Shown: positions 6,277 through 56,195 of the stretch, one piece after another
How positions within the stretch are numbered: position 1 is the first letter of the stretch
Layout: each line of letters begins with the position of its first letter
Position numbers and translations under genes: made by a program
Assembly: GCA_964016885.1 (NCBI GenBank)
Contig: OZ024740.1
Location: 214,334,001 to 214,398,000, forward strand
Origin: Eledone cirrhosa
Taxonomy: Eukaryota
DNA length: 64,000 bases
Reading direction: 5' to 3'
Notes under the pieces: generated by a model
Database searches by the model: none
What the model was told of the DNA's origin: nothing
Seen by the model: the letters and a program-made list of their open reading frames with translations, nothing else

Positions 6277-6323
<47 letters not shown>

Positions 6324-6447
6324 TACATTTAATTTGTTGGGATACAACAAGCAAATATTTTTATAACTGATATAAAGCACTCAACAAATTATTGGAGTAA
6401 AAATACGATATATTAACAAATGGAAACTATATTTATAAAACCATATT

Positions 6448-6512
6448 TATTTCATTATACATATTTCAAGGACACCAAAGCAAATTATGGAGCGCTTTCA
6501 TCAGATAAAATA
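6448..6512 (-). ncRNA. Type I hammerhead ribozyme (PLE pLTR)
   Basis: Reverse complement reads TATTTTAT-CTGATGA-stem II-GAAA-TATGTA-TA-ATGAAATA. Confidence 0.8.
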
Positions 6513-6588
6513 TCCGGGAGCTTCCAGCCGACATGGTCGCATTCTTTAAGGGTATGTCAATATTTGTTTATAAAACTGATCTATATTA

Positions 6589-6653
6589 TATTTTATCTGA
6601 TGAAAACGCACCATAATTTGCTTTGGTGTCCTTGAAATATGTATAATGAAATA
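6589..6653 (+). ncRNA. Type I hammerhead ribozyme (PLE pLTR)
   Basis: TATTTTAT-CTGATGA-AAACGCACCA..TGGTGTCCTT-GAAA-TATGTA-TA-ATGAAATA, overlapping an AATAAA. Confidence 0.8.
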
Positions 6654-6691
6654 AATATGGTTTTATAAATATAGTTTCCATTTGTTAATAT

Positions 6692-6756
<65 letters not shown>

Positions 6757-9688: not shown

Positions 9689-9749
<61 letters not shown>

Positions 9750-9753
<4 letters not shown>

Positions 9754-9952
9754 CGTTTCTGAATTTGTTTAGCAAGATTCTTTATCTGAAAATGTGTTGA
9801 AACCGACATTGTTACACTTTGGGAGTGTCATGTTGCCAATAAGAAATACACGCACCAGTTGCTTTCACTTCAATTTATTATAATAAATTGAAGTGAAAGC
9901 AACTGGTGCGTGTGTTTCTTATTGGCAACATGACCCTCCCAAAGTATAACAA

Positions 9953-13878: not shown

Positions 13879-14289
13879 CCGGGAGAGATGACCCCTTAGC
13901 CTTTGTCAAGGCAGAATTCTAGGAGAAGGAAAACTCTGATATAACACCTGCAACCCTGATGGTATCCAATGATGTTGATTGTTCTTCTTTTTGGTAAATA
14001 TCATCTTGGTTAAGAGAGTGGGACTGGCTTTGTGCAGTGCCTTTGCTCACTATAAAAGCTTCACGGCACAGGCATTGCTTTATATCTGGAGATCTCTCTG
14101 CACTTGTCGTTACATGGTACAATGGGCCCAGCATTATGTGACAATAATTGTCACAGGTGTAGTGTTTGTACCCGAGTATTCAAGTTGCTGGCTGGATTAA
14201 AAAGTCACACTCGTTCAGAGCATCGGTAGGGGTTCTCCTACATGGATATAAAATAGTGGCCGTATTCGAAAACGAGTTGGCAGCCACCA
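13879..14289 (+). mobile_element. Dispersed repeat, probably derived from an RTE-like 5'UTR; inverted relative to 16748-17300
   Basis: Closely similar by eye to the reverse complement of 16748-17160, with an identical GGCAGCCACC-(AT)n end. A partial copy lies at 2398-2521. CTAGGAGAAGGAAAACTCTG is recalled as typical of RTE 5' regions. Confidence 0.6.
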
Positions 14290-14399
14290 TATATATATAT
14301 GTATATATCTACACATATATATATATGTATATATATATATGTGTATATATATATGTATATATATACATATATATATGTATATATATGTATGTATATATG

Positions 14400-14688
<289 letters not shown>

Positions 14689-14693
14689 ATATA

Positions 14694-14742
<49 letters not shown>

Positions 14743-15411
14743 GTGTATATATATATGTATATATATATATATATGTGTGTATATATATGTATATATATAT
14801 ATATGTGTGTATATATATGTATATATATATATATGTGTGTATATATATGTATATATATATATATGTGTGTATATATATATATATATGTGTGTATATATAT
14901 ATATATATGTGTGTATATATATGTATATATATATATATATATATATGTGTGTATATATATATATATGTGTGTGTATATATATATGTGTGTATATATATAT
15001 ATGTGTATATATATATGTATATATATATGTGTATATATATATATATATATGTGTATATATATATATATATGTGTATATATATATATATGTGTATATATAT
15101 GTGTATATATATATGTATATATATATATGTGTATATATATATGTATATATATATATATGTGTATATATATATGTGTATATATATATGTATATATATATAT
15201 GTGTATATATATATATGTGTGTGTGTATATATATATGTGTGTCTGTTTATATATGTATATATATATATGTGTATATGTATATGTATATATATGTGTATAT
15301 GTATATGTATATATATGTGTATATGTATATGTATATATATGTGTATATGTATATGTATATATATGTATATGTATATGTATATATATATATATATGTATAT
15401 GTATATATATT

Positions 15412-16515
15412 AATATATGTATAATCAGGAAAGTACCACCCGATAAAGGGGGATCTTGCATATGCAAACTATGCCTGAATGAGACCCTCGAGATACTAAA
15501 AGGTGGAAGCGGCCGGATAAACCTCAGAACCGACTTCTTCGGGACGTGCAGACACCCCAGGGCTGGGACCTTCCTCAAGATATATGGACAGTAGCAACAC
15601 AAGAAGATGTGAACTCCCCTCAAGCTATAGGGACTTCTCCAGAACATGTAGACACCTCTCGGCCAGACCTCCCTCAAGCTATATGGGCAATAACAACACC
15701 CTAGGTTGAGAACTCCCCTCAAACCATAGGGACCAACCCAGGCTGAGCAGACACCATGATAGCCTAGAGATTGATTGTGACACAGCTATTATAATTTGGC
15801 CAACATCTTTATAACACACACGCATTTTAATTGACTTGATTTTTGATTTTTCAATTTTTCAATTTTTCAATTTTAATTTCTCATTATCAATTTGTTATTT
15901 GTTTTCTGTTCTCTTCACTTTATCACCTTATATTTATTTTAAAGTTGAGATTGGTTTTAAAACAAGCACATTTTATTTGATTATCTTATTCTTTTACCAT
16001 CTTGTTCCTCATACCAATCTATCCAACATATTTCTGACCTTGAGATTGGTTATAGCACACACAAAGACTTTATCTTACTTTATTTGAATCTTCATTTTAT
16101 TTTTCACTTCTCAATATTCATTTTCATTACTTTTTCCTTATTTTTTCATTAATTTTTCATTTATTCTTTATTCTTTATTCTCTATTTATTTTCTGTTTTC
16201 TTCATTTTGAATGAGGACTGTTCTAACAACTGTTCTAACAACTGACCAATGAGAGAAAAGGCCCTTTGACACTGAAATTCGTTTGTTTGAATTCATATGA
16301 TTCCAGTTCCTCAGTGAAATAACAACCCAACCAGGAACTGGGCATATCAGAGTATTGACAAAGTTATACACCTCAACAACATATGTACTTGTCTATACCA
16401 CACTAATTCGGACTGCCTGAAGAGGTCACAGCCAAAGATGGCTGTCACCGAAATATATATAGCAGTAATAAACGAAGCTAAATTTTAAACATTTGACTTA
16501 TTTATTTTATTTTAT
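15412..16515 (+). mobile_element. 5'-truncated Hydra-like PLE: EN C-terminus + 3'UTR + HHR
   Basis: [39 protein letters not shown] matches the end of the ORF at 30900. The UTR has a ~101-bp internal duplication at about 15548/15649. Confidence 0.8.
16412..16466 (+). ncRNA. Type I hammerhead ribozyme
   Basis: ACTGC-CTGAAGA-GGT CACAGCCA AAGA TGGCTGTC ACC-GAAA-TATATA-TA-GCAGT, with perfect stem I and AATAAA directly after. Confidence 0.9.
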
Positions 16516-16524
16516 TTTATATAT

Positions 16525-16583
<59 letters not shown>

Positions 16584-16599
16584 CATATATCTGTATATA

Positions 16600-16653
<54 letters not shown>

Positions 16654-16684
16654 TATGTCTGTATATATATATACATATATATGG

Positions 16685-16721
<37 letters not shown>

Positions 16722-16747
16722 TACATATATGTCTGTATATATATATA

Positions 16748-17300
16748 TGGTGGCTGCCAACTCGTTTTCGAGTACGGCCACTACTTTATATCCATGTAGG
16801 AGAACCCCTACTGATGCGCTGAACGAGTGTGACCTTTTAGTCTCAGCCAGCGACTTGAAAACTCTGGTACAAACACTACACTTGTGACAATTATTGACAC
16901 ATAGTGCTGGGCCCATGGTACCATGTGATGACAAGTGCAGAGAGATCTCCAGATATAAAGCAATGCCTGTGCTGTGAAGCTTTTATAGTGAGGAAAGGCA
17001 CTGCACAAAGCCAGTCCCACTCTCTTAACCAAGATGATATTTACCAAAAAGAAGAACAAGTCAACATCATTGGATACCATCAGGGTTGCAGGTGTTATAT
17101 CAGAGTTTTCCTTCTCCTAGAATTCTGCCTTGACAAAGGCTAAGGGGTCATCTCTCCCGGTGATTTTGGATGGCCATTGACTCTTAAGAGCTCCTTTGAC
17201 CTTTGACAGGTTTTGTTTTTAGTCCTGCAGGATGTCCAAAGTCACCCTCCTCACCAAGAAACCTTGGTGGGGTTGCCAGTTTAGTCGCCAACGACCCGTG
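16748..17300 (-). mobile_element. Longer copy of the RTE-5'UTR-like dispersed repeat
   Basis: Reverse complement of 13879-14289 plus about 140 extra bp. Flanked by (TA)n on both sides. Confidence 0.6.
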
Positions 17301-22473: not shown

Positions 22474-24562
22474 CTAGTTACAGATCAGATGCGATTTCAG
22501 ATGAGGACAGCATCTGAAGATCTCAGTCTTTGAGTTAAGGCAAGCGGAAGTGGCTCTCAAGTTTAGCAAAATCCTATACTTTTCTGTGGTACACAAAGAA
22601 CAATTCTTTGTGACCCTTTGGTACTCCCTCGAATGGTCTAATATAGACCAATCAATAAAGTACGGGATGTTACTATCCTTGCGTTCCCACACCTTACTTG
22701 CGAGGGCCGTTGATGTTCGTTTATCGGAGTGCTTAAAAGAAGCGACATGTGAGTAAAATCTGGTTTTAAACCTGTCCTGGGTCATACCAACATATCGCTT
22801 ACTCCTGGCTGGCTGGTTGTTGATTACCGGTGTTATCTTAGCCTCATAAACAACAGATTTGGTGTTACATTTACCCTGCAATGGGCATTCATCCGGCTTC
22901 CTGCAACTGCATCCTGGATTTATTCTCGTATGGTTTGAACTGGTGATTTTGTACTTCATACATGGGCAACAAGAGTAGCTGATCTTAACTACGTTCCTAT
23001 TAAATATCTTATAATATCTATGATTAGGAGGAAAATGTTTGTCTAATAGTTCAAGGAATTTCCTTCCTACATTAGTTTTGACAGTTAGAGAGAAGGGGGG
23101 TGTGAACCAAATAATCTTCCTTTTCCTGTTATTGTGGTTAGTTTTAGGGGGGGGGGGGGGAGTAGGTAAATAAGAATTTTTTTCTGTAAAACCGCTGTTC
23201 TTAAGGGCTTTATTATAATAGGGGCGGCTTTATTAAAAATGTCTATAGACGAAGATAAGGTAGAAATCCTACGGCTAATGTTAGGAATAAGATTATTAAA
23301 AACTATAGGGGGATGGCAAGATACCTAAGATTTTCATTAGGTTTATGATAGGGTTTAAAAGAGGCGGTAAGTAGATCAAGATTAATATCAAGAAAGTTAG
23401 CATTAGTAAGGTTCGTATCTATAGTGATTTTAAGGTTAAGGTTAGCAAAAGTATTGATTAAATCTTTACGGAATTTATCAAGGTTATGGCCGTTGGTGGT
23501 ATGAGAAACTGCTAATTCGTCATCACGGTATAAACCGATATTATGGGACGGAAATTTCTCTTTGAGGGTGTGGAGAAGGAATAATCCTACTAAGTCACAC
23601 ACATCCGCACTGTCATATGAACCCATTGCAACATCAAAAGAGTTTTCAGGGTTTGACTTTTTAACCCAAATATTATCATTAGTAAAGAGTAAAGTTTTTC
23701 TAGCATGAAAGATAATGTCTTCTAATTTAGAAATATTAATGAAGGGTCTTGCAAAATCTAAGGCATTAGTTAATAAGGAAACAGTAATAGATGGGTAAAA
23801 ATCGACAATATCAAATTGGGTAAATCTACACTTATTTTTACCTTGTATAATATTGAACCAAGAAATAACAGAGGAAGTATTTAGCCACTGTGATAGGCCA
23901 GTGTTAGTTCTAATTTGGAGAATTATTTTTCTTAAGATTTTCTTACTTGCAAGGCCAACCTCGGATTTAGCCGGTTTAATCAGTCTACAACTAGGTCGAT
24001 TAGTAAAGTCCAATTTATGGTCTTTAAGGGTAATATATTCTTTACGCTTAGCTAGGCATTCAATCCGGTTATCTATTTGTAAAGAACTATCTAGTTCTTT
24101 AGCTTCTTTATTGATAGTATTGTAGGTATTATTATTAGTTAATTGATATTTATTGGTAATACTATTAGTTAAAAGTTGGTTATACAAAGTACTATTAACT
24201 TCAAAGAGATATTTAGTTTTATCAGAAAGAACAAAAGTGTTTGTAGAATTTCTAAAATTAGAAATATCGTTAGATAGTTTAGTTTGAAAGTTATTATTGA
24301 ACTTACGAAATTTGATATCACTAATTAGATTAACAAGGTCTAATTCGAAGTTGGCCATGTCTTTAATTCTAGGTGGATATTTACGGGATTTGATGTCAAA
24401 ACAATCTTTAGTATCAGCACTGAATAGTCCATCGTAAACCATTGCCTTCCATCTCATTCTTTTAACGACTTGTTCGATTTTATCTATGAGGATTTTGGTA
24501 TAAGTTGTGTTGGAAGGAGTGGGTATATTTTTGATTGAATAATCCAATTCATAAAGATCCAT
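22474..24562 (-). pseudogene. Full-length but frameshifted Hydra-like PLE ORF (RT + GIY-YIG)
   Basis: 23303-24562 has YSIKNIPTPS..KRMRWKA, FDIVDFYPSI, MGSYDSADV and LYRDDEL. 22474-22959 has CSCRKPDECPL, VVYEA..YVGMT..FKTRFYSH and CSLCTTEK..CCPH. Frameshifts lie in 22960-23303. Confidence 0.92.
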
Positions 24563-24735
24563 AGTGTATGTTGGTTAAATTCCTGAAAACTGTAGAGTGC
24601 TCAACTAATCGGGCTGGAAAGTGCCAATCGTAAATGTAATATAGAATATGCTTCAATCAATCCCGGTTGGAGCTGTATAAATTTATATATATATATACAT
24701 ATATATATACATATATATGTATATATATATATATT

Positions 24736-25316: not shown

Positions 25317-25360
25317 CACAATATATTAACAAATGGAAACTATATTTATAAAACCATATT

Positions 25361-25425
25361 TATTTCATTATACATATTTCAAGGACCCCAAAGCAAATTA
25401 TGGTGGGCTTTCATCAGATAAAATA
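25361..25425 (-). ncRNA. Type I hammerhead ribozyme in pLTR fragment 25320-25500
   Basis: Reverse complement reads TATTTTAT-CTGATGA-AAGCCCACCA..TGGGGTCCTT-GAAA-TATGTA-TA-ATGAAATA. Same family as 6589. Confidence 0.8.
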
Positions 25426-25504
25426 TAATATAAATCAGTTTTATAAACAAATATTGACATACCCTTAAAGGATGCAACCATGTCGTTTGGAAGCTCCCGG
25501 ATAG

Positions 25505-26189: not shown

Positions 26190-26516
<327 letters not shown>

Positions 26517-26674
26517 TATTGTTATACTTTGGGAGGGTCATGTTGCCAATAAGAAACACACGCACCAGTTGCTTTCACTTCAATTTAATTTAATATATAT
26601 TTATAAATTTACAAATTTATAAATTTCTGGTTGGTTGGTTGGTTCCACAACCAGATAGTTGTTTATATATATAT

Positions 26675-26719
26675 AGTCATAGTTCTTTCGTCACACACTC
26701 TGTGACCTCTTCAGTGACT
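26675..26719 (-). ncRNA. Type I minimal hammerhead ribozyme
   Basis: Reverse complement of 26907-26951. Confidence 0.8.
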
Positions 26720-26906
26720 GGGGATTTCTTTCTTCGTTTCTGTGCCTTTCCTTTCTTCTATCCTACGCCATTTTGTTTGTGTGTGGGTTGCGTGCTCAGT
26801 TTGCCCGGATGTGGCGCATGCGCAAACTGAGCACGCAACCCACACACAAACAAAATGGCGTAGGATAGAAGAAAGGAAAGGCACAGAAACGAAGAAAGAA
26901 ATCCCC

Positions 26907-26951
26907 AGTCACTGAAGAGGTCACAGAGTGTGTGACGAAAGAACTATGACT
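26907..26951 (+). ncRNA. Type I minimal hammerhead ribozyme
   Basis: AGTCA-CTGAAGA-G-GTCACA GAGTG TGTGAC-GAAA-GAAC-TA-TGACT. Confidence 0.85.
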
Positions 26952-27166
26952 ATATATATATAAACAACTATCTGGTTGTGGAACCAACCAACCAACCAGA
27001 AATTTATAAATTTGTAAATTTATAAATATATATTAAATTAAATTGAAGTGAAAGCAACTGGTGCGTGTGTTTCTTATTGGCAACATGACCCTCCCAAAGT
27101 ATAACAATATCGGTTTCAACACACGATTTCAGATAAAGAATCTTGCTAAACAAATTCAGAAACGAA

Positions 27167-27197
<31 letters not shown>

Positions 27198-27220
27198 AAT
27201 ATATATATATAAATAAATAT

Positions 27221-27340
27221 ATAAATTGAAACAAAATGAAAACGAAATTTCATTTCTCACTCTTAGTATGGCACTTACTTAAATGTAAGTATGCATGTAT
27301 ACGTACATACATATATGTATACAGACGTACAGTAGCATGC

Positions 27341-27379
<39 letters not shown>

Positions 27380-27630
27380 CATATGCATACAGGTACACAT
27401 ACATACATGCACGTATCAGTTTAGCGGCGCTTATTATAACGTCGCTTTGTTCGTTTGTAAACAAACTGAACACCCTGAATTTATGCCAACAAAAAGGTGA
27501 CGTGGTTGCCTTAACACCGTATGGCATAAATTCAGGCTGTTCAGTTTGTTTACAAACAAACAAAGCGACGTTATAATAAGCGCCGCTAAACTGATACGTG
27601 CATATATGTATGTGTACCTGTATGCATATG

Positions 27631-27662
<32 letters not shown>

Positions 27663-30209
27663 TATGCATGCTACTGTACGTCTGTATACATATATGTATG
27701 TACGTATACATGCATACTTACAATAAATATATATATATATATATACGATATTAAATAAATGGAAACTATATTTATAAAACCATATTTATTTCATTATATA
27801 TATTTCAGGGATATCATATTAACAATATGTTATGCCTTCCTCAGACAAAATACAATATAGACAGTTTTATAGATAAATAGATTTGACATACCGTTCAACA
27901 TCGACTTGTATTTGAGAAAGTTGATTTGGCAGTGAAAAAATTGTAAACAGAAAGAAAGAAAGAGAGAAAGAAGGAAAGAAAGAAAGAAAATGAAGAAAAA
28001 GAAGAAAAAGAAGAAATGCCTGTAACAAAATAGAGAGATGGAAAGATAGATAAAGAGAAGAACTTCATGTAAAGAAACAGAGATATATATATATAGAGAG
28101 AGGAAATAGATAGAGATAGATATATATAGAGAAAAGTAGGTAGTTGGAACGTATCAATGATACATTTATTTATTTATTTATTTATTTAGCTCTAGTATTA
28201 ATGTAAGGGAGATATATGTGGTTAGGGAAGAAACCAGCCGTTATATAGAGAGAAAAATGAAAAGTAACCAGACATAGGCGAGGCATAATTTAAAAACCCT
28301 ATGTTTTAATGTAGAAGTATTAGTACGTATAAAAACCAGGCGCTATAATGTAAATATCAGTATTCCTGAATGAGACACGTATCCATAATGTGTGAAAAGT
28401 AATGATCTTATGTTTAGTTTTAAAAATTCATATGTTTATATGATAACTACAAACATCGATGTGAATTTACGTGATCAATTCCGCAAATCTCTATTTCACA
28501 CGGAGAACATTCTCATTGTGCTATAAAAATTTAAGTATACATATATGTGTATATATATACACATATATATAGAGTCTATATTAATTTTAACAATACTATT
28601 CTTGTCTTTACTCTACATGATTATCTATCAAGCAGAAATAGAGAACAGATTTCAATATATTAATAAAAAAATATCAGAAACAAAAACAAAAACAAAAAAT
28701 AATAATGATAATAATAATAATAAATAATAATAAAATAGAAAACTAAAAAATAAAAAATATTACAAAAAATATTACATATTAAAAATAAAAATATTAGAAA
28801 ATATTACAATAATAAAAATAAACCGCAAAGATCAACCCTTCAAAATTAATTGACAATATATTGCCAAGTTCATTATAAGCACCAGAGTCGAAAACAGATA
28901 AAGCTAAAAATTATTTATCAAATCGCGTCTAGCAAAAATCATTTCAAAAAGTTTAGGATGCCCATTTGGTCTACATGTGTTCTTATATTTAATATAGAAG
29001 TTTATCTAGTGTAACGTTTATTCGAAATATTTGGAGCATCAACTTTTAGGGTAGTTTAATTTTTCATGAAGAATGTTTAAATAAAAATAAAAATAAAAAG
29101 AAGAATAAAAAGAAGAAATCGAAAGATTTATCGGCTAGTTTCCCAAATATACTACATTTTAAATTTAAATTTATATTTAAAAGTTGAGTTTAATCTATGT
29201 TTGCAGCAACTGAATAAATTTGTCCGTAGATTAAGGGAATTTTTAGATTTTAGTATAAAGAATATCTCCTCTGCGCAGAGGTCACATGTCTCAGAGGATG
29301 AATTAAAAGGAATCCCTCTTGAGACTATATTCCAAGCCGTCGAATATCTAACGTTATCTAGCTTAAGTTGCCAGAGTACGCCTGATAGTGCTGTTGAAGA
29401 TTTTTTGCTTGGATCTGTGAAAGAATTCTTGTGGTTATTATAGCGAAGTTTAAATTCCGTCGATGTGGAACCGACGTAGTTAAAAGAATTAGAGTCAGTT
29501 TTAACATTACAATTGTATATTATATTTTTAACTAAGCAGTTGTTATTTAACGGACATTTAGATCTATCTCTACAGTTACATTTGTTAACTTGTATATTAT
29601 TTATGCTATTATCACTAGGTTTTAAGTTCCTATTATTTATTCTATTAATATTTTGTGCTAAATTTTTGGTGGATGAGTAGGTTAATTTTATAGTATGTCT
29701 ATTGAAAATTGAGTGATACCTATGTGTTCTAGGGAAGCGATTATCAAGAGCTTTAAAAAATAGTTTAGCGATGTGGGTTTTAATGTTTAGTGAGAAAGGG
29801 GGGGCAAACCAAATTATGTTCCTAGTTCTATTTCTTTTTTGGCTTTTGGAATTATTGTAATGCTTTCTATTATATTTGTTAAGGTTGTTGCCGTAATTAA
29901 AATAGTTGTTATTTTGTTTAGTTTGTCTATCATTATCTATGTACATAATCTTATCACTATATCCTGCTCTAGCTAACGCTTCATTGTAGTACTGGGCTTT
30001 TTCGTCGAAAATCTTTCTATTAGACGAGATTCTAGAGATACGTTTTTGAACAGAGTTTACTATAGTGTTTTTGACAGATCTGGGGTGGTTAGAGTTAAAG
30101 CTGACATAGTTTAAGTTTTCATTCAACTTGTGAAAAGGATAGTGAAGACATGTGTTGAGATTTAATGTTATATCTAGGAAATTGACTATTCTATGGTTGT
30201 TCTCAATTT
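27221..30209 (-). mobile_element. Inverted 5'-truncated duplicate of the intact PLE 3' half, including ~520 bp of its downstream flank
   Basis: Reverse complement of 32056-35038 with only a few substitutions. ORF 29152-30126 equals the C-terminal part of the 737-aa ORF, with one A/V difference. Confidence 0.95.
27787..27852 (-). ncRNA. Hammerhead ribozyme (inverted pLTR copy)
   Basis: Reverse complement of 34413-34478. Confidence 0.75.
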
Positions 30210-30655
30210 TAAATTATGCCTCGCCTATGTCTGGTTACTTTTCATTTTTCTCTCTATATAACGGCTGGTTTCTTCCCTAACCACATATATCTCCCTTACA
30301 TTAATACTAGAGCTAAATAAATAAATAAATAAATAAATGTATCATTGATACGTTCCAACTACCTACTTTTCTCTATTTATATCTATCTCTATCTATTTCC
30401 TCTCTCTCTCTATATATATATATATCTCTGTTTCTTTACATGAAGTTCTTCTCTTTATCTATCTTTCCATCTCTCTATTTTGTTACAGGCATTTCTTCTT
30501 TCTCTTCTTTTTCTTCATTTTCTTTCTTTCTTTCCTTCTTTCTCTCTTTCTTTCTTTCTGTTTACAATTTTTTCACTGCCAAATCAACTTTCTCAAATAC
30601 AAGTCGATGTTGAACGGTATGTCAAATCTATTTATCTATAAAACTGTCTATATTG

Positions 30656-30721
30656 TATTTTGTCTGAGGAAGGCATAACATATTGTTAATATGATATCCC
30701 TGAAATATATATAATGAAATA
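30656..30721 (+). ncRNA. Hammerhead ribozyme in the 5' pLTR
   Basis: TATTTTGT-CTGAGGA-AGG..CCT-GAAA-TATATA-TA-ATGAAATA. Stem I is 8 bp with two G.U pairs; stem III is palindromic. Confidence 0.75.
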
Positions 30722-30899
30722 AATATGGTTTTATAAATATAGTTTCCATTTATTTAATATCGTAAATATACTCCAAATACTTGTTGAGTGCTTTTATATC
30801 AGTTATAAATATTTACTAGTTGTAACCCAACAATTTAAATATAACTTTCCATGTATCTTGCTCCAATACTGTTGAGCGCTTTATATTATAACTGAAAAA

Positions 30900-33113
30900 A
30901 TGGAATTCTTTAAGATTACTTCCTCTTTAAAAGACATACCTATACCTAGAAACAAAGACTTTATAAAACAATTAATAGATAAATCTGACTCTTTTATAAG
31001 GAGAATCAGGTGGCGAGCATTCCACTTTGATAAATCTAATATAAATGAAAATGTCTCGGACTTAAACAAAGTTTTCAAATCTAAAAGAAATCCACCCCCT
31101 AACAAACTTTTATCTGACTTTGAAAACGATATAATTTCTATCATACAAGGGGTCAAATTCAAGAGAAACTTCAAAGGCCAGGAATATCTGAAAGGCATTA
31201 AGGATAATATTGAGAGCTTAGAGAAAACTGAGAAGATCTTGGTGAAATCTGACAAGACCAACAACCTCTATGGAGTGCAGAAAGACATGTATAATGGCCT
31301 CATACTGAAGGAACTGAGGAAAAAGTACAAGGTAGCAGATAAAGCCGATTTTGAGAAAATGAATGTCGAAGCATCTTGTATAATGCACGAGTTGGAAATT
31401 GAGAAGAGAACACAACCTTTCGTGCCCAGGAAACCGAAGATCAATATGAAAGATCACAAAAGGAATTTTGAAAATGATTTGCCAGTTAGATTGATCGCAC
31501 CATCAAAATCGGACCTGGGCAAATTAAGCAAAAACATTCTTGACAGGGTGATACAGCAAATTAAGAACTTGGATTGTTTACCTAACCTGAGCTTGTGGAA
31601 GGGAACTGGAGAGGTTGTTGAGTGGTTTAAGCAAATTAAATATAACAATAATAATAAGTTTATTCAACTTGATATTGCTAACTATTATTCTTCTATTACC
31701 CCTAATCTACTAAATAAGGCACTAAATTACGCATTCAAACATACAGACCTAACTAGCAATGAAATGCACATTATATTATCGGCTAGGAAAACATTGATAG
31801 AATTTAATGACCAACTATGGACCAGAGCAGATAGAGATAGCAATTTTGACATTACTATGGGATCATCCGACTCAGCTCAGGTAATTGACCTTGTGGGCTT
31901 ATTTTTAATCAATTCGCTACATAGGAAAATATCTGGTACTACCGGAGGTTTATATAGAGATGACATGCTTTTACTTATTGATAATAATAACTCTGAACTA
32001 AATAGAAAAAGAAAACAAATTACACAATTTTTTAATTACTTTAATCTTAAAATAGAAATTGAGAACAACCATAGAATAGTCAATTTCCTAGATATAACAT
32101 TAAATCTCAACACATGTCTTCACTATCCTTTTCACAAGTTGAATGAGAACTTAAACTATGTCAGCTTTAACTCTAACCACCCCAGATCTGTCAAAAACAC
32201 TATAGTAAACTCTGTTCAAAAACGTATCTCTAGAATCTCGTCTAATAGAAAGATTTTCGACGAAAAAGCCCAGTACTACAATGAAGCGTTAGCTAGAGCA
32301 GGATATAGTGATAAGATTATGTACATAGATAATGATAGACAAACTAAACAAAATAACAACTATTTTAATTACGGCAACAACCTTAACAAATATAATAGAA
32401 AGCATTACAATAATTCCAAAAGCCAAAAAAGAAATAGAACTAGGAACATAATTTGGTTTGCCCCCCCTTTCTCACTAAACATTAAAACCCACATCGCTAA
32501 ACTATTTTTTAAAGCTCTTGATAATCGCTTCCCTAGAACACATAGGTATCACTCAATTTTCAATAGACATACTATAAAATTAACCTACTCATCCACCAAA
32601 AATTTAGCACAAAATATTAATAGAATAAATAATAGGAACTTAAAACCTAGTGATAATAGCATAAATAATATACAAGTTAACAAATGTAACTGTAGAGATA
32701 GATCTAAATGTCCGTTAAATAACAACTGCTTAGTTAAAAATATAATATACAATTGTAATGTTAAAACTGACTCTAATTCTTTTAACTACGTTGGTTCCAC
32801 ATCGACGGAATTTAAACTTCGCTATAATAACCACAAGAATTCTTTCACAGATCCAAGCAAAAAATCTTCAACAGTACTATCAGGCGTACTCTGGCAACTT
32901 AAGCTAGATAACGTTAGATATTCGACGGCTTGGAATATAGTCTCAAGAGGGATTCCTTTTAATTCATCCTCTGAGACATGTGACCTCTGCGCAGAGGAGA
33001 TATTCTTTATACTAAAATCTAAAAATTCCCTTAATCTACGGACAAATTTATTCAGTTGCTGCAAACATAGATTAAACTCAACTTTTAAATATAAATTTAA
33101 ATTTAAAATGTAG
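30900..33113 (+). CDS. PLE polyprotein: reverse transcriptase + C-terminal GIY-YIG endonuclease (737 aa, Hydra-clade-like CxCx5C linker)
   Basis: Uninterrupted ORF. RT motifs LDIANYYSSI, MGSSDSAQV, LYRDDML, VNFLDITL. Thumb SNHP..AGY. Linker CNCRDRSKCPL. Endonuclease IIY..YVGST..FKLRYNNH..CDLCAEE..LN. Confidence 0.95.
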   Translation: MEFFKITSSLKDIPIPRNKDFIKQLIDKSDSFIRRIRWRAFHFDKSNINENVSDLNKVFKSKRNPPPNKLLSDFENDIISIIQGVKFKRNFKGQEYLKGIKDNIESLEKTEKILVKSDKTNNLYGVQKDMYNGLILKELRKKYKVADKADFEKMNVEASCIMHELEIEKRTQPFVPRKPKINMKDHKRNFENDLPVRLIAPSKSDLGKLSKNILDRVIQQIKNLDCLPNLSLWKGTGEVVEWFKQIKYNNNNKFIQLDIANYYSSITPNLLNKALNYAFKHTDLTSNEMHIILSARKTLIEFNDQLWTRADRDSNFDITMGSSDSAQVIDLVGLFLINSLHRKISGTTGGLYRDDMLLLIDNNNSELNRKRKQITQFFNYFNLKIEIENNHRIVNFLDITLNLNTCLHYPFHKLNENLNYVSFNSNHPRSVKNTIVNSVQKRISRISSNRKIFDEKAQYYNEALARAGYSDKIMYIDNDRQTKQNNNYFNYGNNLNKYNRKHYNNSKSQKRNRTRNIIWFAPPFSLNIKTHIAKLFFKALDNRFPRTHRYHSIFNRHTIKLTYSSTKNLAQNINRINNRNLKPSDNSINNIQVNKCNCRDRSKCPLNNNCLVKNIIYNCNVKTDSNSFNYVGSTSTEFKLRYNNHKNSFTDPSKKSSTVLSGVLWQLKLDNVRYSTAWNIVSRGIPFNSSSETCDLCAEEIFFILKSKNSLNLRTNLFSCCKHRLNSTFKYKFKFKM

Positions 33114-34412
33114 TATATTTGGGAAACTAGCCGATAAATCTTTCGATTTCTTCTTTTTATTCTTCTTTTTATTTTTATTTTTATTTAAACATTCTTCATG
33201 AAAAATTAAACTACCCTAAAAGTTGATGCTCCAAATATTTCGAATAAACGTTACACTAGATAAACTTCTATATTAAATATAAGAACACATGTAGACCAAA
33301 TGGGCATCCTAAACTTTTTGAAATGATTTTTGCTAGACGCGATTTGATAAATAATTTTTAGCTTTATCTGTTTTCGACTCTGATGCTTATAATGAACTTG
33401 GCAATATATTGTCAATTAATTTTGAAGGGTTGATCTTTGCGGTTTATTTTTATTATTGTAATATTTTCTAATATTTTTATTTTTAATATGTAATATTTTT
33501 TGTAATATTTTTTATTTTTTAGTTTTCTATTTTATTATTATTTATTATTATTATTATCATTATTATTTTTTGTTTTTGTTTTTGTTTCTGATATTTTTTT
33601 ATTAATATATTGAAATCTGTTCTCTATTTCTGCTTGATAGATAATCATGTAGAGTAAAGACAAGAATAGTATTGTTAAAATTAATATAGACTCTATATAT
33701 ATGTGTATATATATACACATATATGTATACTTAAATTTTTATAGCACAATGAGAATGTTCTCCGTGTGAAATAGAGATTTGCGGAATTGATCACGTAAAT
33801 TCACATCGATGTTTGTAGTTATCATATAAACATATGAATTTTTAAAACTAAACATAAGATCATTACTTTTCACACATTATGGATACGTGTCTCATTCAGG
33901 AATACTGATATTTACATTATAGCGCCTGGTTTTTATACGTACTAATACTTCTACATTAAAACATAGGGTTTTTAAATTATGCCTCGCCTATGTCTGGTTA
34001 CTTTTCATTTTTCTCTCTATATAACGGCTGGTTTCTTCCCTAACCACATATATCTCCCTTACATTAATACTAGAGCTAAATAAATAAATAAATAAATAAA
34101 TGTATCATTGATACGTTCCAACTACCTACTTTTCTCTATATATATCTATCTCTATCTATTTCCTCTCTCTATATATATATATATCTGTTTCTTTACATGA
34201 AGTTCTTCTCTTTATCTATCTTTCCATCTCTCTATTTTGTTACAGGCATTTCTTCTTTTTCTTCTTTTTCTTCATTTTCTTTCTTTCTTTCCTTCTTTCT
34301 CTCTTTCTTTCTTTCTGTTTACAATTTTTTCACTGCCAAATCAACTTTCTCAAATACAAGTCGATGTTGAACGGTATGTCAAATCTATTTATCTATAAAA
34401 CTGTCTATATTG

Positions 34413-34478
34413 TATTTTGTCTGAGGAAGGCATAACATATTGTTAATATGATATCCCTGAAATATATATAATGAAATA
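34413..34478 (+). ncRNA. Hammerhead ribozyme in the 3' pLTR
   Basis: Identical to 30656-30721. Confidence 0.75.
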
Positions 34479-34604
34479 AATATGGTTTTATAAATATAGT
34501 TTCCATTTATTTAATATCGTATATATATATATATATATTTATTGTAAGTATGCATATATACGTACATACATATATGTATACAGACGTACAGTAGCATGCA
34601 TATA

Positions 34605-34638
<34 letters not shown>

Positions 34639-35157
34639 CATATGCATACAGGTACACATACATACATGCACGTATCAGTTTAGCGGCGCTTATTATAACG
34701 TCGCTTTGTTTGTTTGTAAACAAACTGAACAGCCTGAATTTATGCCATACGGTGTTAAGGCAACCACGTCACCTTTTTGTTGGCATAAATTCAGGCTGTT
34801 CAGTTTGTTTACAAACGAACAAAGCGACGTTATAATAAGCGCCGCTAAACTGATACGTGCATGTATGTATGTGTACCTGTATGCATATGTATATATATAT
34901 GTATATATATATATATATGCATGCTACTGTACGTCTGTATACATATATGTATGTACGTATACATGCATACTTACATTTAAGTAAGTGCCATACTAAGAGT
35001 GAGAAATGAAATTTCGTTTTCATTTTGTTTCAATTTATCGTTTTCGGTATGCCTGACCGATTTAACTCACTCAATAAGCAAATTAGGCTGCTCAGCCGTT
35101 AATTTTCATAAGGAAAGTATATACTTTCGAACGTTCAACTATCTGGCAGATGGGTAA

Positions 35158-35200
35158 ACGGTGCTGATGATAGCTAACAAGCTCGAAACTAGTACATCGT
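35158..35200 (+). ncRNA. Type I minimal hammerhead ribozyme (family A)
   Basis: ACGGTG-CTGATGA-TAGCT AACA AGCT-C-GAAA-CTAG-TA-CATCGT. Confidence 0.9.
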
Positions 35201-35219
35201 TCCTGTGTCAGTGTTGAAC

Positions 35220-35405
35220 TTAGGTGACTGCAGGCGCCGAAAAAGTCGGCCCTTCTGTTTAATAGCTTGGTTCCGCCATGAAGTATCTCAAGTGTATCAC
35301 TAACACAGAGGTTGCAAATACCAGACCCACCTCTGTCTGAGGAAACCTTTCTAACCACGGACCAGACCAAAGAGAGCGGGGTCTTTTCAAGTTTGAGCTT
35401 CCAGA
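35220..35405 (-). pseudogene. Isolated Hydra-like PLE endonuclease C-terminal fragment
   Basis: Reverse complement translates IWKLKLEKTPLSLVWSVVRKVSSDRGGSGICNLCVSDTLEIL..LLNRRADFFGACSHL. Confidence 0.8.
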
Positions 35406-36076
35406 TTTATTATAATGTTCGGTTTGTTTGTAAACAAACAGCCCGAATTAAGTCGTACAGTGTTCGGCAACCATCGTTGTTCTTTTGTTCAACACTGACA
35501 AAGGAACGATGAAGTTAATAGCTGTCATCAGCACCGTATACCTTCCTGTCAGTCAATTGAACGTTTGAAAGTATATACTTTCCTTATGCATATTAACGGC
35601 TGAGCAGCCTAATTTGCATATCGAGTGACTTAGTCGGCCGGGCGTACCGAAAGCGATAAATGGAAAAATGAAATTTCATTTCTCACTCTTAGTACGGCTG
35701 ATACTTAAATACAAGTATGTATACGTACATACATATATGTATACAGACGTACAGTAGTATGTATATACATACAAACCGAACATTATAATAAATGTTCGGT
35801 AAACCCATACGTACATATATATATATGTGTGCATGTATGTATGTATATACATACTACTGTACGTCTGTATACATATATGTATGTACGTATACATACTTGT
35901 ATTTAAGTATCAGCGGTACTAAGAGTGAGAAATGAAATTTCATTTTTTCCATTTATCGTTTTCGGTACGCCCGGCCGACTAACTCACTCGATATGCAAAT
36001 TAGGCTGCTCAGCCGTTAATATGCATAAGGAAAGCATATACTTTCAAACGTTCAATCATCTGACAGGAAGGTATTC

Positions 36077-36115
36077 GATGCTGACGATAGTTAATAAGCT
36101 TGAAACTAGTTTATC
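36077..36115 (+). ncRNA. Hammerhead ribozyme (family A, weakened stems)
   Basis: GATG-CTGACGA-TAGTT AATA AGCT-T-GAAA-CTAG-TT-TATC. Confidence 0.65.
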
Positions 36116-36324
36116 ATTCCTTTGTCAGTATTGAACAAAAGGGCAACGACGGTTGCCGAACACTGTACGGCTTAATTCGGGCTGTTTGTTTACAAACAAA
36201 CCGAACATTATAATAAATGTTCGGTAAACCCTACGTACATATATATATATATATGTGCATGTATCTATGTATATACATACTACTGTACGTCTGTATATAT
36301 ACATGTATGTACGTATACATACTT

Positions 36325-36373
<49 letters not shown>

Positions 36374-39739: not shown

Positions 39740-40075
39740 CCCTCGAAACGGCTTGAGCTCAGCCGTCGGGGTCCTACTCGTTCCTATTATCCACTCTACT
39801 ACCCTAAGGATTGAGTACTTTGGTGCGTTATGGTCCACCTGGTTCCTTACCACATTTACTTCGTTATATATATATATATATATATATATCCAGGTGGTGT
39901 ATATATATATATATATATTGGAATAACTGCTCTGAAATAGCGATATATATGTGAATATAGACATAGAATATTCGAAAATATTCTGTATGTTTATAATAAA
40001 CATTTTGAAGACCTAATCGCTATAGAATAGAATACGTCACGTATTACAATTAGATTCTCGATAAAAGCAAGGGAA

Positions 40076-40118
40076 GTAATCTACGCGTTTCATTCTTATT
40101 AGAAATCTTCAGGACTAC
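40076..40118 (-). ncRNA. Type I minimal hammerhead ribozyme
   Basis: Reverse complement of 40357-40399. Confidence 0.8.
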
Positions 40119-40356
40119 ATATCCAGTGCTTTTATCGAGAATGACACAGCTAAAGACTTATAGAATACTTAGCTGTGTACAGGATATTTTCGAATATTCT
40201 ATGTCTATATTCACATATATATCGCTATTTCAGAGCAGTTATTCCAATTTCTAATTTCTGCCGGACCGGCAACCGCTCTTTCAAACCAGTTCCTGTACAC
40301 AGCTAAGTATTCTATAAGTCTCTAGCTGTGTCATTCTCGATAAAAGCACTGGATAT

Positions 40357-40399
40357 GTAGTCCTGAAGATTTCTAATAAGAATGAAACGCGTAGATTAC
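40357..40399 (+). ncRNA. Type I minimal hammerhead ribozyme
   Basis: GTAGTC-CTGAAGA-TTTCT AATA AGAAT-GAAA-CGCG-TA-GATTAC, with palindromic stem III ACGCGT. Confidence 0.85.
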
Positions 40400-40545
40400 T
40401 TCCCTTGCTTTTATCGAGAATCTAATTGTAATACGTGACGTATTCTATTCTATAGCGATTAGGTCTTCAAAATGTTTATTATAAACATACAGAATATTTT
40501 CGAATATTCTATGTCTATATTCATATATATATATATATATATAAT

Positions 40546-44239: not shown

Positions 44240-44241
<2 letters not shown>

Positions 44242-44430
44242 TAAAGGATATTTAATTTGTTGGTAATTCAACAAATATATATATGCAGGTAAAACTTGAA
44301 CTGTTAAGATCTCGTTCCTGGATATGTCAATATTTATAAAATAAACTTTGTATTTTATCTGATGAGTGCGTACCAAAGTTTTGGTACCGTTGAAATATAT
44401 ATATATAATATATTTATATAATATATATGT

Positions 44431-44463
<33 letters not shown>

Positions 44464-44515
44464 ATAGAATAAATATGGTTTTATAAATATAGTTTCCATT
44501 TATTAAAATCATTGA
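44240..44515 (+). mobile_element. pLTR remnant with an HHR (44351-44410) whose stem III has expanded into (TA)n
   Basis: TATTTTAT-CTGATGA-GTGCGTACCAAAGTTTTGGTACCGTT-GAAA-(TA)n, then AATAAATATGGTTTTATAAATATAGTTTCCATTT. Confidence 0.75.
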
Positions 44516-44907
44516 TATATATATATATATATATATAATCATTCTCTTATATATTTTAAAATGCATAAGAACTGTGAAACCGATAAAGGAAACAAATAAA
44601 TATTCTTAAAAAGACTCCAGTTGGGGGAGGGGGGTTCTCGCGTCAGATGCGAGAAGAAGAAAGTGTGTTTTTGTTTCTGACGCAAAGACGATTGTGGTAG
44701 CCTGTTGTTATTTTAGCTCGCCTAATGCGAGAAAGTTCTCCAAGAAAGTTAACCAGGAATCTTTAAAACCTCCCCACTGAAGTTAACAGAGAACTTACTA
44801 GATCTCCAAAATCAAACTGTAAAATTATAATATTATAAAATTAAATTAAATTGTTTAGAACTACAAGTGAAGTCATTCTTTTCCTTTACACTCACATATA
44901 TATATAT

Positions 44908-47192
<2,285 letters not shown>

Positions 47193-48235: not shown

Positions 48236-49358
48236 GAGCTATCTGGACGACTGCTTCATCCTCTGGCATGAAAGTATAGAAAGACTGATTGAGTTTAAAA
48301 CCCTTCTAAATGGACTCAACACAAACTTATAATTTACAATGGATTACAGCCATGAACAACTCCCTTTCCTCGACATCCTCATCAAGAAAACAAACAACAA
48401 AATAGAAACAGACATATACTACAAACCCACAGACTCCAAACAATATCTACCATTTACCTCGTGCCACCCTCGCCATACCAAAATGGCAATTCCTTATAAG
48501 CTAGCCAGAAGGATCTGCAAAATAGTTTCAGATAAATACACATGCTACACACGACTAGAAGAATTAAATAACACACTTATCAGCAGAAACTACCCACCAT
48601 CCCTAATCAACAATGGATTCCAACGTGCCCTAAAACTCAACATCCAGGACACCCCAAACTCAGGAATGAACCGCAACAGAAAACTCAATCATACATCTCC
48701 ACACACAACCCCCTCAACATTGAGGCATTCGACACCATCCTCCAGAACATTCCTTTACTAAAAAGAGACCCACGAATGAACAAAATCCTCCAAACACACA
48801 ACATCATAAAGAGCAAAAGACAACTTAAATACATAAAAAAACATCCTTACACAAGCCAAAATCCAACCAACCCTCACAATGGACCCTACAGTAAAAAAAT
48901 GCGGAAGGCCCAACTGTGGTATATGCATAAATCTAATAGAAGGTTCAACATTCCATTTTAAACAAAGACAACATTTCACAGTTAAACACAACTTTACATG
49001 TGCATCTGAAAACCTAATCTATGTTCTGACCTGCTCAGGTTGTCGAGAGCACTACATAAGACAGACAAAATACAGCCTCCGACAACGTATGACCGTCCAT
49101 AGATCACAAATCAAAATACAGGAATACAGAAAGATTGCTTTTAGTGAACATATCGCCAATTGTGCACCTAACCAACATCCAAACTTTAAAATTTCCCCCA
49201 TTTACAAATTCATAGACAACACTTCTTTCATCCATCGTACCAATAAGGAAACGTACTACATTAACAAATTCCAACCTCTACTTAATGGACTAAACTTCGG
49301 ACTAAAGGAACTAACAGGATCGAACAATGAATCAAAACCAAATTCCTATATTCTCTAA
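48236..49358 (+). pseudogene. 5'-truncated, frameshifted Neptune-like PLE ORF (RT thumb + GIY-YIG)
   Basis: YLDDCFILW, LPFLDILI, YYKPTDSKQYLPFTSCHP, KKCGRPNCGIC, TCASENLIYVLTCSGC..YIRQT..LRQRMTVH. Confidence 0.9.
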
Positions 49359-50047: not shown

Positions 50048-50049
<2 letters not shown>

Positions 50050-50478
50050 CAATGAGTTATTTAATTTGTTGATAATTCAACAACATTTATTTATAACAGA
50101 TTAGAAGCACTCAACAGTGTTATTCTGGGGTATAATATCAATAATATTGATAAATGGAAGCTATCTTTATAAAACCATATTTATTTTATTATATTTATTT
50201 CAAGGGTACCAACATGTTGGTATGCACTCATCAGATAAAATACAAAAATTGGTTTATAGATAGTGACATATTCAGACAAGAACTTAATGTTGTGAAATCT
50301 ATTTGAATAGAGATTTGAAGTTTTGTTCACTATCCAAATAGAACTCACAACATTAAGTTCTTGTCTGAATATGTCACTATCTTTAAACCAATTTTTGTAT
50401 TTTATCTGATGAGGGCGTACCAAAATTTTGGTACCCTTGAAATATATATAATAATAAATATGGTTTTATAAAGATATC
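50048..50478. mobile_element. Foldback of PLE pLTR ends with HHRs at 50182-50242 (-) and 50398-50456 (+)
   Basis: 50163-50295 is the reverse complement of 50345-50475. CTGATGA-GGGCGTACCAAAATTTTGGTACCCTT-GAAA-TATATA-TA. Confidence 0.85.
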
Positions 50479-50850
50479 CTAGTTTATTTTACACCTAATT
50501 CTGTTTAATTGACTGTATATCTAGGCGATTACGCTGTCGAAATATTGGATAAATATTCTGTTGCAGCCGGCGCGAAGGGCTGGTTTCGGTTATTTGTTGG
50601 AGATTTCTTCATAGAAACCTTATTCTTATAGCCTGGTCTATTCGATTTTTATATGGTTAATTATACTAATTGGGAGAGGAAATGGTATATATTTTATCTG
50701 GTGATTCTATAGACATGTTTTATGATATATAGCTCTGATTATTTAATTTATTAACTTTTCATTGAGCCACAAAGTGACCCGTTGCAAAACACGTATATGT
50801 ATATATGAATATATATATATATATGTAAACCTTTATATGTATATATATAT

Positions 50851-52264: not shown

Positions 52265-53410
52265 TTAAACCTTATTTAATGTTGGTCTATATTTTTGAAT
52301 AAACATATTTTCCTTATTTATTCGCATTTGTTCTGTTGTATTGTTAGCGCAAAGGTAAAATGGGAAGACTTGGAATTTGGGTGTCTTATTACTTGCGCAA
52401 ATGTCTAGATGTGCACTTAGTGGTATTTGTCTCGTGGTTGGATCTCGTAATTGTTGGCGATGAACTGTCATTCTGTTTCTGAGTGTGAGTTTAGTTTGTC
52501 CTATATAATCTTCATTGCATCCTTTACATTTAATGGCATAAATTAGATTTTTTGATGAGCAAGTGAAGTGATTTTTTACAGTAAAATTTTGTCCTGATTT
52601 AAATGTATACGTGTTGCCTTCAATGAGGTGAGTGCAGGTTCCACAATTAGAGCGACCACATTTTTTGATACTTGGTTGTGGGTTTGTGGTAGGTAATTTG
52701 GCATTGGTGAGTAATGTTTTCAGTGATTTTGGTTGTCTTTTGCTTTGGATTATTTTGTGTGTTTCAAGGGCTTTTTTCATTCTTGGGTTTTGTTTTAGTA
52801 GTGGGATGTTATTGTGAATAGTGTTGTAAGCTTCCGCATTTCTTGGGTTGTGTGTTGAGATATATGATAGAATATTGGACGTACCTTGAATTTGTTTCTG
52901 TTTCCGTAATTCATCAATGCCTATTGCTTTAGCCCTTTCTATTCCATTATTTATTAGTAATAGTGGGTACTCTCTCTCAAGTAGAATTTCCTTTAATTCT
53001 TGAAGTCTTTTATTTCGCGTTTCATAATTGGAGACAATTGTGCAAATTCTTCTTGCTAGGTTAAAAGGAATGTTCGTCTTCGTGTGCTTTGGATGGTTGG
53101 AGGTGAATAGCAGATATTGTTTGGAATCTGTTGGTTTGTAGTGTATGTCAGTTTCGATATTTGTGTCTTTTTTTGTGATTAAGATGTCCAGAAATGGGAG
53201 TTGATCTTGGCTGTATTCCATTGTGAATTGGATGTGGTTATTGATGCCGTTTATTAAGTTTTTGAAATCCTTCAGTTGGTCGAGTGTGTGGGACCAAAGA
53301 ATGAGGCAATCATCCAAGTAGCGTTTCCAATTCTCTGATAAATATTTGTGGAAGTTCAATCCGTATTTTGATTTGGACTGTTCATATATCTGGACTTCTA
53401 AGTATGCCAT
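52265..53410 (-). CDS. 5'-truncated Neptune-like PLE ORF, uninterrupted 381 aa (RT C-half + GIY-YIG); 3'UTR runs to about 51060 with a degenerate HHR at 51192-51229
   Basis: WKRYLDDCLILW, LPFLDILI, SNHPKH, KKCGRSNCGTC, TCSSKNLIYAIKCKGCNEDYIGQT..LRNRMTVH..H..E..LN. Truncated at (TA)n. Confidence 0.9.
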   Translation of the reverse strand: MAYLEVQIYEQSKSKYGLNFHKYLSENWKRYLDDCLILWSHTLDQLKDFKNLINGINNHIQFTMEYSQDQLPFLDILITKKDTNIETDIHYKPTDSKQYLLFTSNHPKHTKTNIPFNLARRICTIVSNYETRNKRLQELKEILLEREYPLLLINNGIERAKAIGIDELRKQKQIQGTSNILSYISTHNPRNAEAYNTIHNNIPLLKQNPRMKKALETHKIIQSKRQPKSLKTLLTNAKLPTTNPQPSIKKCGRSNCGTCTHLIEGNTYTFKSGQNFTVKNHFTCSSKNLIYAIKCKGCNEDYIGQTKLTLRNRMTVHRQQLRDPTTRQIPLSAHLDICASNKTPKFQVFPFYLCANNTTEQMRINKENMFIQKYRPTLNKV

Positions 53411-53412
53411 GA

Positions 53413-53442
<30 letters not shown>

Positions 53443-53447
<5 letters not shown>

Positions 53448-56043: not shown

Positions 56044-56071
56044 ATTATTATTATTATTATTATTGTTGTTA

Positions 56072-56165: not shown

Positions 56166-56195
56166 TTATTATTATTATTATTATTGTTATTGTTA

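Follow-up and report, generated by a model that had tools for sequence, protein, structure and literature searches.

The stretch of DNA analysed here, referred to as the window, comprises 64,000 nucleotides (nt) of Eledone cirrhosa (contig OZ024740.1, positions 214,334,001 to 214,398,000, assembly GCA_964016885.1), with 32% GC and no N, and is dense in microsatellites, harboring 93 (TA)n arrays that total 9.0 kb. It hosts a Penelope-like element (PLE) whose open reading frame (ORF) carries a reverse transcriptase (RT) and a GIY-YIG domain, and which is accompanied by a head-to-head inverted copy of its 3' part that runs on into the DNA downstream of the element. The original prediction placed the element at 30207..34521, which proved too narrow, as the structure begins at 27221 and the inverted arm had been overlooked. 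The frame is open from stop to stop over 30876-33113 (745 codons), and from the ATG at 30900 it gives the uninterrupted product of 737 amino acids (aa) already described, ending at TAG 33111-33113; in an alignment of 27 proteins its N-terminus lines up with the starts of the full-length homologues. The direct repeats, or pseudo-long terminal repeats (pLTRs; 30207-30764 and 33970-34521), are near-identical, as had been stated (98.2% over 564 aligned nt), and the 3' end of the full-length element indeed adjoins a (TA)9 at 34521. The resulting unit measures 3757 bp (3.76 kb), with a 1.4-kb 3' region, and can hardly be called compact, since it exceeds every entry of the Hydra clade of PLEs in the part covered of the table by Craig (longest complete 2729 bp). 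The partial tandem that forms the pLTRs, together with an inverted 5'-truncated copy and a tail, is the structure of an endonuclease-bearing (EN+) PLE, inverted 5'-truncated copies and tails being described as standard PLE features in the sections of PMC8557442 covered here.

The inverted arm, 27221-30209, is the reverse complement of 32056-35038, with 99.2% identity over 2993 columns, so that about 3 kb stand head-to-head. It contains the 3' half of the ORF, the 3' untranslated region (UTR), the pLTR, the (TA)9 and the beginning of repeat Y, which lies next downstream, thus reaching 517 bp past the element. The inverted and the 3' pLTR share three diagnostic differences against the 5' pLTR (two substitutions and one indel over 558 nt). 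The head-to-head junction shows a 3-nt microhomology at 30207-30209, and the outer end of the arm meets an imperfect TA array via the microhomology TTTAT. On the right side Y homology runs seamlessly across 35038, hence this position marks a boundary for the left arm alone; (TA)n adjoins the left end of Y just as it does other Y ends, as expected of a resident neighbour.

The two arms differ by 8 substitutions in 2983 bp (0.27%) and 2 microsatellite indels, with no significant difference in rate between the flank part (3/517) and the rest (5/2466; p 0.15). Reads agree with the left arm at two positions (32875, in 4/4 related read runs and nearly all reads, and 32792, the majority base in 3/4 of these runs) and with the right arm at one (33383, two contig ends of run X1), so both arms have mutated since the event. 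Assemblies are known to be error-prone at long, near-perfect inverted repeats (PMC8557442, as far as covered), and 0 placed read records span the whole stretch. Still, that an assembly or chimeric-read artefact created the arm is very improbable, since both arms carry private changes and a fold-back read would give identical ones; the variant in which two haplotypes were joined stays in play. The inverted arm is a real, aged duplication, dating back roughly 0.3-1.3 million years at an assumed 1-4e-9 substitutions per site per year.

Features of the PLE locus and of the related short units in the window.
Feature	Position	Strand	Remark
Non-autonomous unit of a direct arm and an inverted arm, the latter with a ~85-nt tail; two hammerheads	6319..6696	.	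(TA)n on both sides
Non-autonomous unit	25318..25503	-	95% identity with the 6.5-6.75-kb unit; terminates at (TA)n
Left (TA)n, imperfect array	27167..27223	.	Likely left remainder of the target; comes after the tailed 3' end of repeat Z
Inverted copy of downstream DNA 34522-35038: (TA)9 and left part of repeat Y	27221..27743	-	TTTAT microhomology to the TA array
Inverted pLTR with predicted hammerhead, core 27844	27744..28295	-	
Inverted 3' UTR and 5'-truncated ORF, copy of 32056-33969	28296..30209	-	
5' pLTR, the 3' end of a truncated upstream copy; minimal predicted type I hammerhead, core 30664	30207..30764	+	
5' UTR	30765..30899	+	First ~85-90 nt are the 'tail' on inverted arms of short units
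737-aa ORF, RT and GIY-YIG (predicted)	30900..33113	+	
3' UTR, long, AT-rich	33114..33969	+	
3' pLTR; predicted hammerhead, core 34421, stem III palindrome AUAUAUAU	33970..34521	+	
(TA)9 and left part of hammerhead-bearing repeat Y	34522..35038	+	Source stretch of the inverted-arm flank
Non-autonomous unit of a direct arm and a short inverted tail, with a stem III grown into a TA run	44240..44517	.	(TA)n on both sides
Non-autonomous tailed unit in head-to-head arrangement	50048..50490	.	Left end at (TA)n; right end not

Concerning the protein, the RT residues (DKT 118-120, D258 and YRDD 352-355), a CxCx5C linker at 596-604 (C596, C598 and C604 invariant), the GIY-YIG residues (Y617, Y630-G632, R641, H645, E700 and N712) and the CxxC (694-697) and CxH (721-723) pairs lying either side of E700/N712 are all present, the motifs being invariant or nearly so across the 27 aligned proteins. 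CCHH is absent, with a single unconserved Cys between Y617 and Y630. An RWR at 37-39 replaces RWK, as it does in two homologues (P0001 and P0003), and in the GVKF at 84-87, of the GxKF/Y type that is described as not conserved in the Hydra clade, only the Phe column is widely shared. A homologue search retrieved 42 proteins at 29-39% identity, one of them named just 'hypothetical protein'. The exact sequence had no match in the protein collection searched, and a PDB sequence search gave a single weak match, a retron RT. HTH_animal and GIY-YIG are annotated in a minority of the members of the atlas neighbours. The predicted structure, with a pLDDT of 86.7, has telomerase RTs as its five best Foldseek matches, so the ORF is, as modelled, a telomerase-related RT joined to a GIY-YIG domain in a single frame, as befits an EN+ PLE.

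On the basis of its motifs the element very probably belongs to the Hydra clade, as the original prediction had tentatively proposed. This clade is defined in the sections covered of PMC8557442 by DKT, CxCx5C, no CCHH and CxxC/CxH around E and N, with a length generally below 3 kb, given as a tendency rather than a definition, which this unit exceeds. In a survey of 23 full-length homologues and 120 relatives of the window ORF at 52.3 kb, the CxCx5C-type linker, searched as CxCx3-7C, was found in 23/23 of the former vs 0/120 of the latter, a Cx2-5CxxC linker in 0/23 vs 119/120, and DKG in 1/23 vs 119/120; the DKT pattern is unspecific, matching somewhere in 63 of the 120 comparison proteins. 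We take these 120 proteins to be Nematis-like, judging by their motifs. A quick tree of 45 rows (the 23 of the 42 hits with at least 650 aa, every sixth of the comparison proteins, i.e. 20, and two window ORFs) places the focal protein within the Hydra-like set, apart from the 20, with a Shimodaira-Hasegawa-like approximate likelihood-ratio test (SH-aLRT) value of 100, and with P0001 and P0003 as neighbours. The top homologue, P0002, shares by eye ~100/126 residues with Hydra-1_Ajap, which also supports the assignment. Two points weigh on the other side: the tree contains no named clade references, its Hydra anchor being that by-eye match, and a Pfam profile search of the ORF matched no domain. 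Membership of Nematis or Neptune was rejected, as the Cx2-5CxxC linker, CCHH and DKG are missing, and so was Naiad or Chlamys, where the endonuclease is N-terminal and a canonical hammerhead is lacking; here it is C-terminal and a hammerhead is present. Judged by its sequence this is a new Hydra family, longer than the tabulated ones.

Two further, broken Hydra-like families lie in the window, at 119-1965 (+) and 22474-24574 (-), with 41% and 37% identity to the focal protein, respectively; the second has a hammerhead at 21062 (-) with a stem III of ACC-ACU-GGU, like that of Hydra-1_Obim. Metagenome contigs yielded 469 stretches encoding Hydra-like proteins, vs 27 families tabulated in 2021, and two of these loci (L024 and L077) show copy pairs on opposite strands.

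Each pLTR carries a predicted type I hammerhead ribozyme, on which core, stems and covariation agree. The cores, CTGAGGA...GAAA, lie at 30664 and 34421, and in the minimum-energy fold stems I and II are closed and the palindromic stem III, AUAUAUAU, is open; the folding energy is no better than that of shuffled sequences (z +0.47). Across the 8 window copies 93% of the cells pair, with 32-61% in slid controls, and both-side changes occur in 9/19 pairs (stems I and II), a value reached in 0/500 shuffles; these covariation figures are inflated, the copies being related and the structure being drawn from them. A search of 30560-30900 against Rfam returned 0 matches, and over the whole window Rfam was swamped by microsatellite matches to miRNA models. 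A dimer-type motif of the same shape, with an open palindromic stem III, is described for metazoan PLEs in the part of PMC4209133 covered. The cut is predicted after 34470, 51 nt short of the element end. We considered the cut as the priming end, whose (UA)4 3' end could pair with the target, and rejected it, as insertions end 51 nt after the cut or at the tail. The hammerhead-end pattern had 0 matches in viral contigs. The other pLTR feature that had been claimed, AATAAA, is present six times in each, and is weak evidence because five of the six stem from a (TAAA)n run in sequence of 72-73% AT; being microsatellite-derived, it was set aside as a poly(A) signal. The pLTR interior (30460-30490 and 34220-34250) also contains a long pyrimidine tract followed by TTACAG|G, which resembles a splice acceptor. 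Introns in the 5' UTR are frequent in PLEs.

Insertion directed by TA is very probable. Within the window, (TA)n borders 7/8 outer ends in the set of homologous units, counting the focal 3' end, vs a chance of ~0.7% per oriented position given the 93 arrays, which bears out the proposed (TA)n association at this scale. The claim that the shorter relatives lie next to (TA)n fails at the right end of the 50.4-kb unit. The 20.66-kb unit has only the hammerhead in common (70%, 69 nt), and its 3' end is unrelated. The other short relatives (6.3-6.7, 25.3, 44.2-44.5 and 50.0-50.5 kb) share the hammerhead and the last ~60 nt at 77-83% identity, the 44.4-kb unit reaching 94% with the focal element over the last 53 nt. 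Against this reading, adjacency does not distinguish target choice from UA-rich RNA ends, both of which fit, and among 75 scored metagenome loci of relatives the 53 with a downstream hammerhead show a (TA)5 within 300 nt in only 12 cases, many contigs ending soon after. At 44359-44470 the TA-rich hammerhead stem III has itself grown into a (TA)n run or been targeted as one.

Both end types occur among the short units, the pLTR end and a tail ~85-90 nt longer, and one read contig has an (AT)n loose end behind 30856. The suggestion that the element is a helper for them is plausible and at the same time loose, only the terminal ~120-200 nt being common at ~80%; given this level of likeness within the window, the helper may instead be a relative of the focal element. 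In four runs (X1, X4, X5 and X15) the read depth at the hammerhead end is 58, 16, 67 and 52 times the ORF median, respectively, and that of the tail region 3-37 times, which is consistent with a large non-autonomous partner family; it counts against this that summed read depths are not copy numbers. A numerous non-autonomous family has been argued for likewise in the covered part of the work on retrozymes (bioRxiv 10.64898/2026.07.22.740005).

Taken together, we consider it probable that the locus is an open-frame EN+ PLE, likely Hydra, that inserted into (TA)n by target-primed reverse transcription and whose arm was likely copied from the same locus. In the mechanism we propose, the GIY-YIG domain would nick the (TA)n array, and reverse transcription would begin where the pLTR ends or, for other copies, ~85-90 nt beyond that point, giving the tail; the RT would then jump to a second copy, producing the 5' pLTR. 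At 30207 the new strand could fold its free 3' end back on the 3-nt microhomology at 32056; extension would then run across the element and past the TA junction, taking in 517 bp of the flank to which the strand was already joined, after which the extended strand would join the left TA array by TTTAT. The focal protein, or a relative, may also mobilise the more abundant short hammerhead units in trans.

For the origin of the arm in this very locus our confidence is only slightly above even; it is the simplest account, because the arm contains the locus's own right flank. That DNA fold-back made it is a tentative proposal, and the stronger version, in which the arm is a frozen integration intermediate and a PLE finishes insertion by fold-back copying through the junction into the target flank, is speculative. 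Self-priming on an antisense template has been proposed for head-to-head repeats of PLEs (PMC3846280, in the part covered). Other read runs contain three further joints that link the ORF to the 3' end on opposite strands, which suggests that inversions recur. Several observations speak against fold-back. The perfect microhomology at 30207 is just 3 nt. Those three joints are weak, with a likeness of 88, one contig or one start each and none identical to the focal junction. In the short units the inverted arm carries the tail and the direct arm lacks it; a tail on one arm needs an RNA template, which means that fold-back is not the sole route in this family, and such tails point to two RNA-templated starts, as read from the unit ends, rather than to fold-back on the direct arm. 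Finally, the duplicated flank stops 58 nt beyond the 3' end of Y itself, a distance equal to the tail length of repeat Z, so the arm end may be an RNA start site. Among metagenome relatives an internal inverted repeat of at least 60 nt occurs in 4/78 loci, none of them readable as flank-bearing, on short contigs. A PLE arm copying its local 3' flank was not found in published titles and abstract openings, subscription papers lying outside this coverage.

These one-arm tails, seen in the short units and in family Z, mark two putative RNA start sites and favour 3' transduction. A donor copy elsewhere would have been read through into its Y neighbour, and both arms reverse-transcribed from that RNA, either with both strands primed or with the antisense RNA self-primed, and with the right boundary beyond 35038, perhaps the (TA)n at 36330. 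A Poseidon protein was found in vitro to cut and extend both strands and to start at two internal RNA sites (PMC11167929, in the part covered), read-through and capture of host DNA have been proposed for rotifer PLEs in the literature covered, and the 58-nt position of the left end fits as well. However, this route requires that as much as 1.8 kb were transduced, palindrome-rich and containing two hammerheads in sense orientation (35164 and 36081); of the other Y tandem junctions within the window, among them the source at 34985, 0/4 stop at the 58-nt position, and the right arm has no boundary at either adjacent Y site (34980 and 35038); we regard it as rather unlikely. Local re-insertion, in which read-through RNA of the resident copy inserted at its 5' side, we rate as unlikely. 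A host fold-back during DNA repair or replication, later than and independent of the insertion, could also have made the 3-kb inverted duplication, as there is short microhomology at both junctions in a region rich in palindromes and microsatellites. Against it, the inversion junction coincides with the element 5' end, a typical place of inverted truncated PLE copies (Penelope-13_HM, in the sources covered), and the difference between 5' and 3' pLTRs is of the same order as that between the arms; this is less likely still. We retain copying from the locus itself as the preferred account.

The description of the element as intact and potentially active stands for the frame and not for the activity. 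All catalytic and zinc-ligand residues are present, at least 99% likeness is found for 1661 of the 5954 placed X1 records, and among the read differences listed there is only one ORF indel, in a single X5 contig. Only ~3 substitutions are expected in the ORF since insertion, hence the open frame would be expected anyway and shows youth rather than function; the arms have drifted apart, and V659 is an amino-acid change private to the full-length copy. Among the 40 of 460 read differences listed, 16 near-fixed ORF sites were translated and 8 change an amino acid, which counts against activity; one of these is I329, which lies in RT motif B and for which the reads give Thr, and two of the 8 changes are common to both arms and thus predate the duplication. 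That the family is still active today is doubtful. The alternative of a young but dead copy of a family no longer moving, the short units being moved by another Hydra family, is a serious possibility that falls short of even. The age of the arms, the modest likeness of the short units and the two other Hydra-like families in the window favour it, whereas the complete residues, the single indel and the closely alike records do not.

Several other repeats show related arrangements. Repeat Y (34530-36366, 2529-3077 and 53422-53727) is non-coding, occurs in tandem and head-to-head, ends at (TA)n and has a hammerhead-like motif with an ACUAGU stem III (2746, 35164, 36081 and 53588); it is likely another non-autonomous PLE derivative. 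Repeat Z (26401-27227, 9694-9945 and 14414-14590) forms a head-to-head pair at 26.4-27.2 kb, and among the 7 ends located (TA)n follows immediately at 4 and behind a shared ~58-nt tail at the other 3, in sequence terms a clear signature of two putative start sites. Inverted pairs are also seen at 39943-40532 (242 nt, 99%, with hammerhead-like motifs at 40112 and 40363) and at 13879-17160 (568 nt, 92%), the latter around a hammerhead at 16417 that again has a AUAUAUAU stem III. Fragments of other PLE clades, presumably Nematis-like and Neptune-like, occupy 52265-53413 (-), 48333-49358 (+) and 45725-46153 (-), with a GIY-YIG Pfam match at 52.3 kb. A C-terminal fragment of a non-LTR (long terminal repeat) retrotransposon with a duplicated end and a weak zf-RVT match lies at 55137-56643 (-), and a tandem satellite with a 49-bp period, at least 67 copies and 96% matches spans 60712-64000.

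If the fold-back proposal holds, PLEs would generate their head-to-head repeats in cis, from DNA, and every such event would leave an inverted duplicate of host flank, so that palindromes build up in microsatellite arrays. A flank-bearing arm would allow a clean genomic test between DNA fold-back and RNA transduction. The covered sections of PMC8557442 list as an open task how the tandem and inverted structures of PLEs arise and how microsatellites are selected. No characterised Hydra-clade protein was found in the PLE literature covered; for an in vitro test the locus supplies what is needed, namely the complete ORF, the two 3' start sites, (TA)n as the natural target and a partner family. 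Apart from the flank-bearing arm, it is one more ordinary family, although new, in a clade for which octopus members have been published.

Compared with the Hydra clade as presented in the covered part of PMC8557442, the element shares the single ORF, DKT, CxCx5C, the lack of CCHH, the CxxC and CxH around E/N, the hammerhead near the 3' end, insertion at (TA)n and the occasional inverted 5'-truncated copy (Penelope-13_HM). It differs in its 3.76-kb unit with 1.4-kb 3' region, complete entries being 2.1-2.7 kb, in RWR for RWK, in the stem III AUAUAUAU and in an inverted arm that includes non-element flank; its tail of ~85-90 nt also contrasts with the 30-40 bp described there for PLEs. Hydra-1_Obim of Octopus bimaculoides, in the data covered, shows the clade motifs and the (TA)n preference, with ~46/116 residues (about 40%) identical by eye over the DKT-RT2 stretch, but its stem III is ACCA/UGGU, it is listed as 'no pLTR', and it is nearer to the broken window family at 22474-24574 (~58/116, by eye). 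The Poseidon element PAc of Anolis, as far as PMC11167929 was covered, is alike in combining RT and GIY-YIG, in its AT-rich targets, in having a tailed as well as a tailless 3' end and in a hammerhead cut site away from the insertion end; it belongs to another clade, and its starts lie inside the ORF start, whereas the focal tail is part of the 5' UTR. A type I hammerhead with a short palindromic helix III is likewise found in non-LTR retrozymes and minimal dimeric hammerheads (PMC4209133 and bioRxiv 10.64898/2026.07.22.740005, in the parts covered); they far outnumber the coding element and are related to a pLTR, but they form head-to-tail tandem arrays, whereas the short units of the window are head-to-head pairs in (TA)n.

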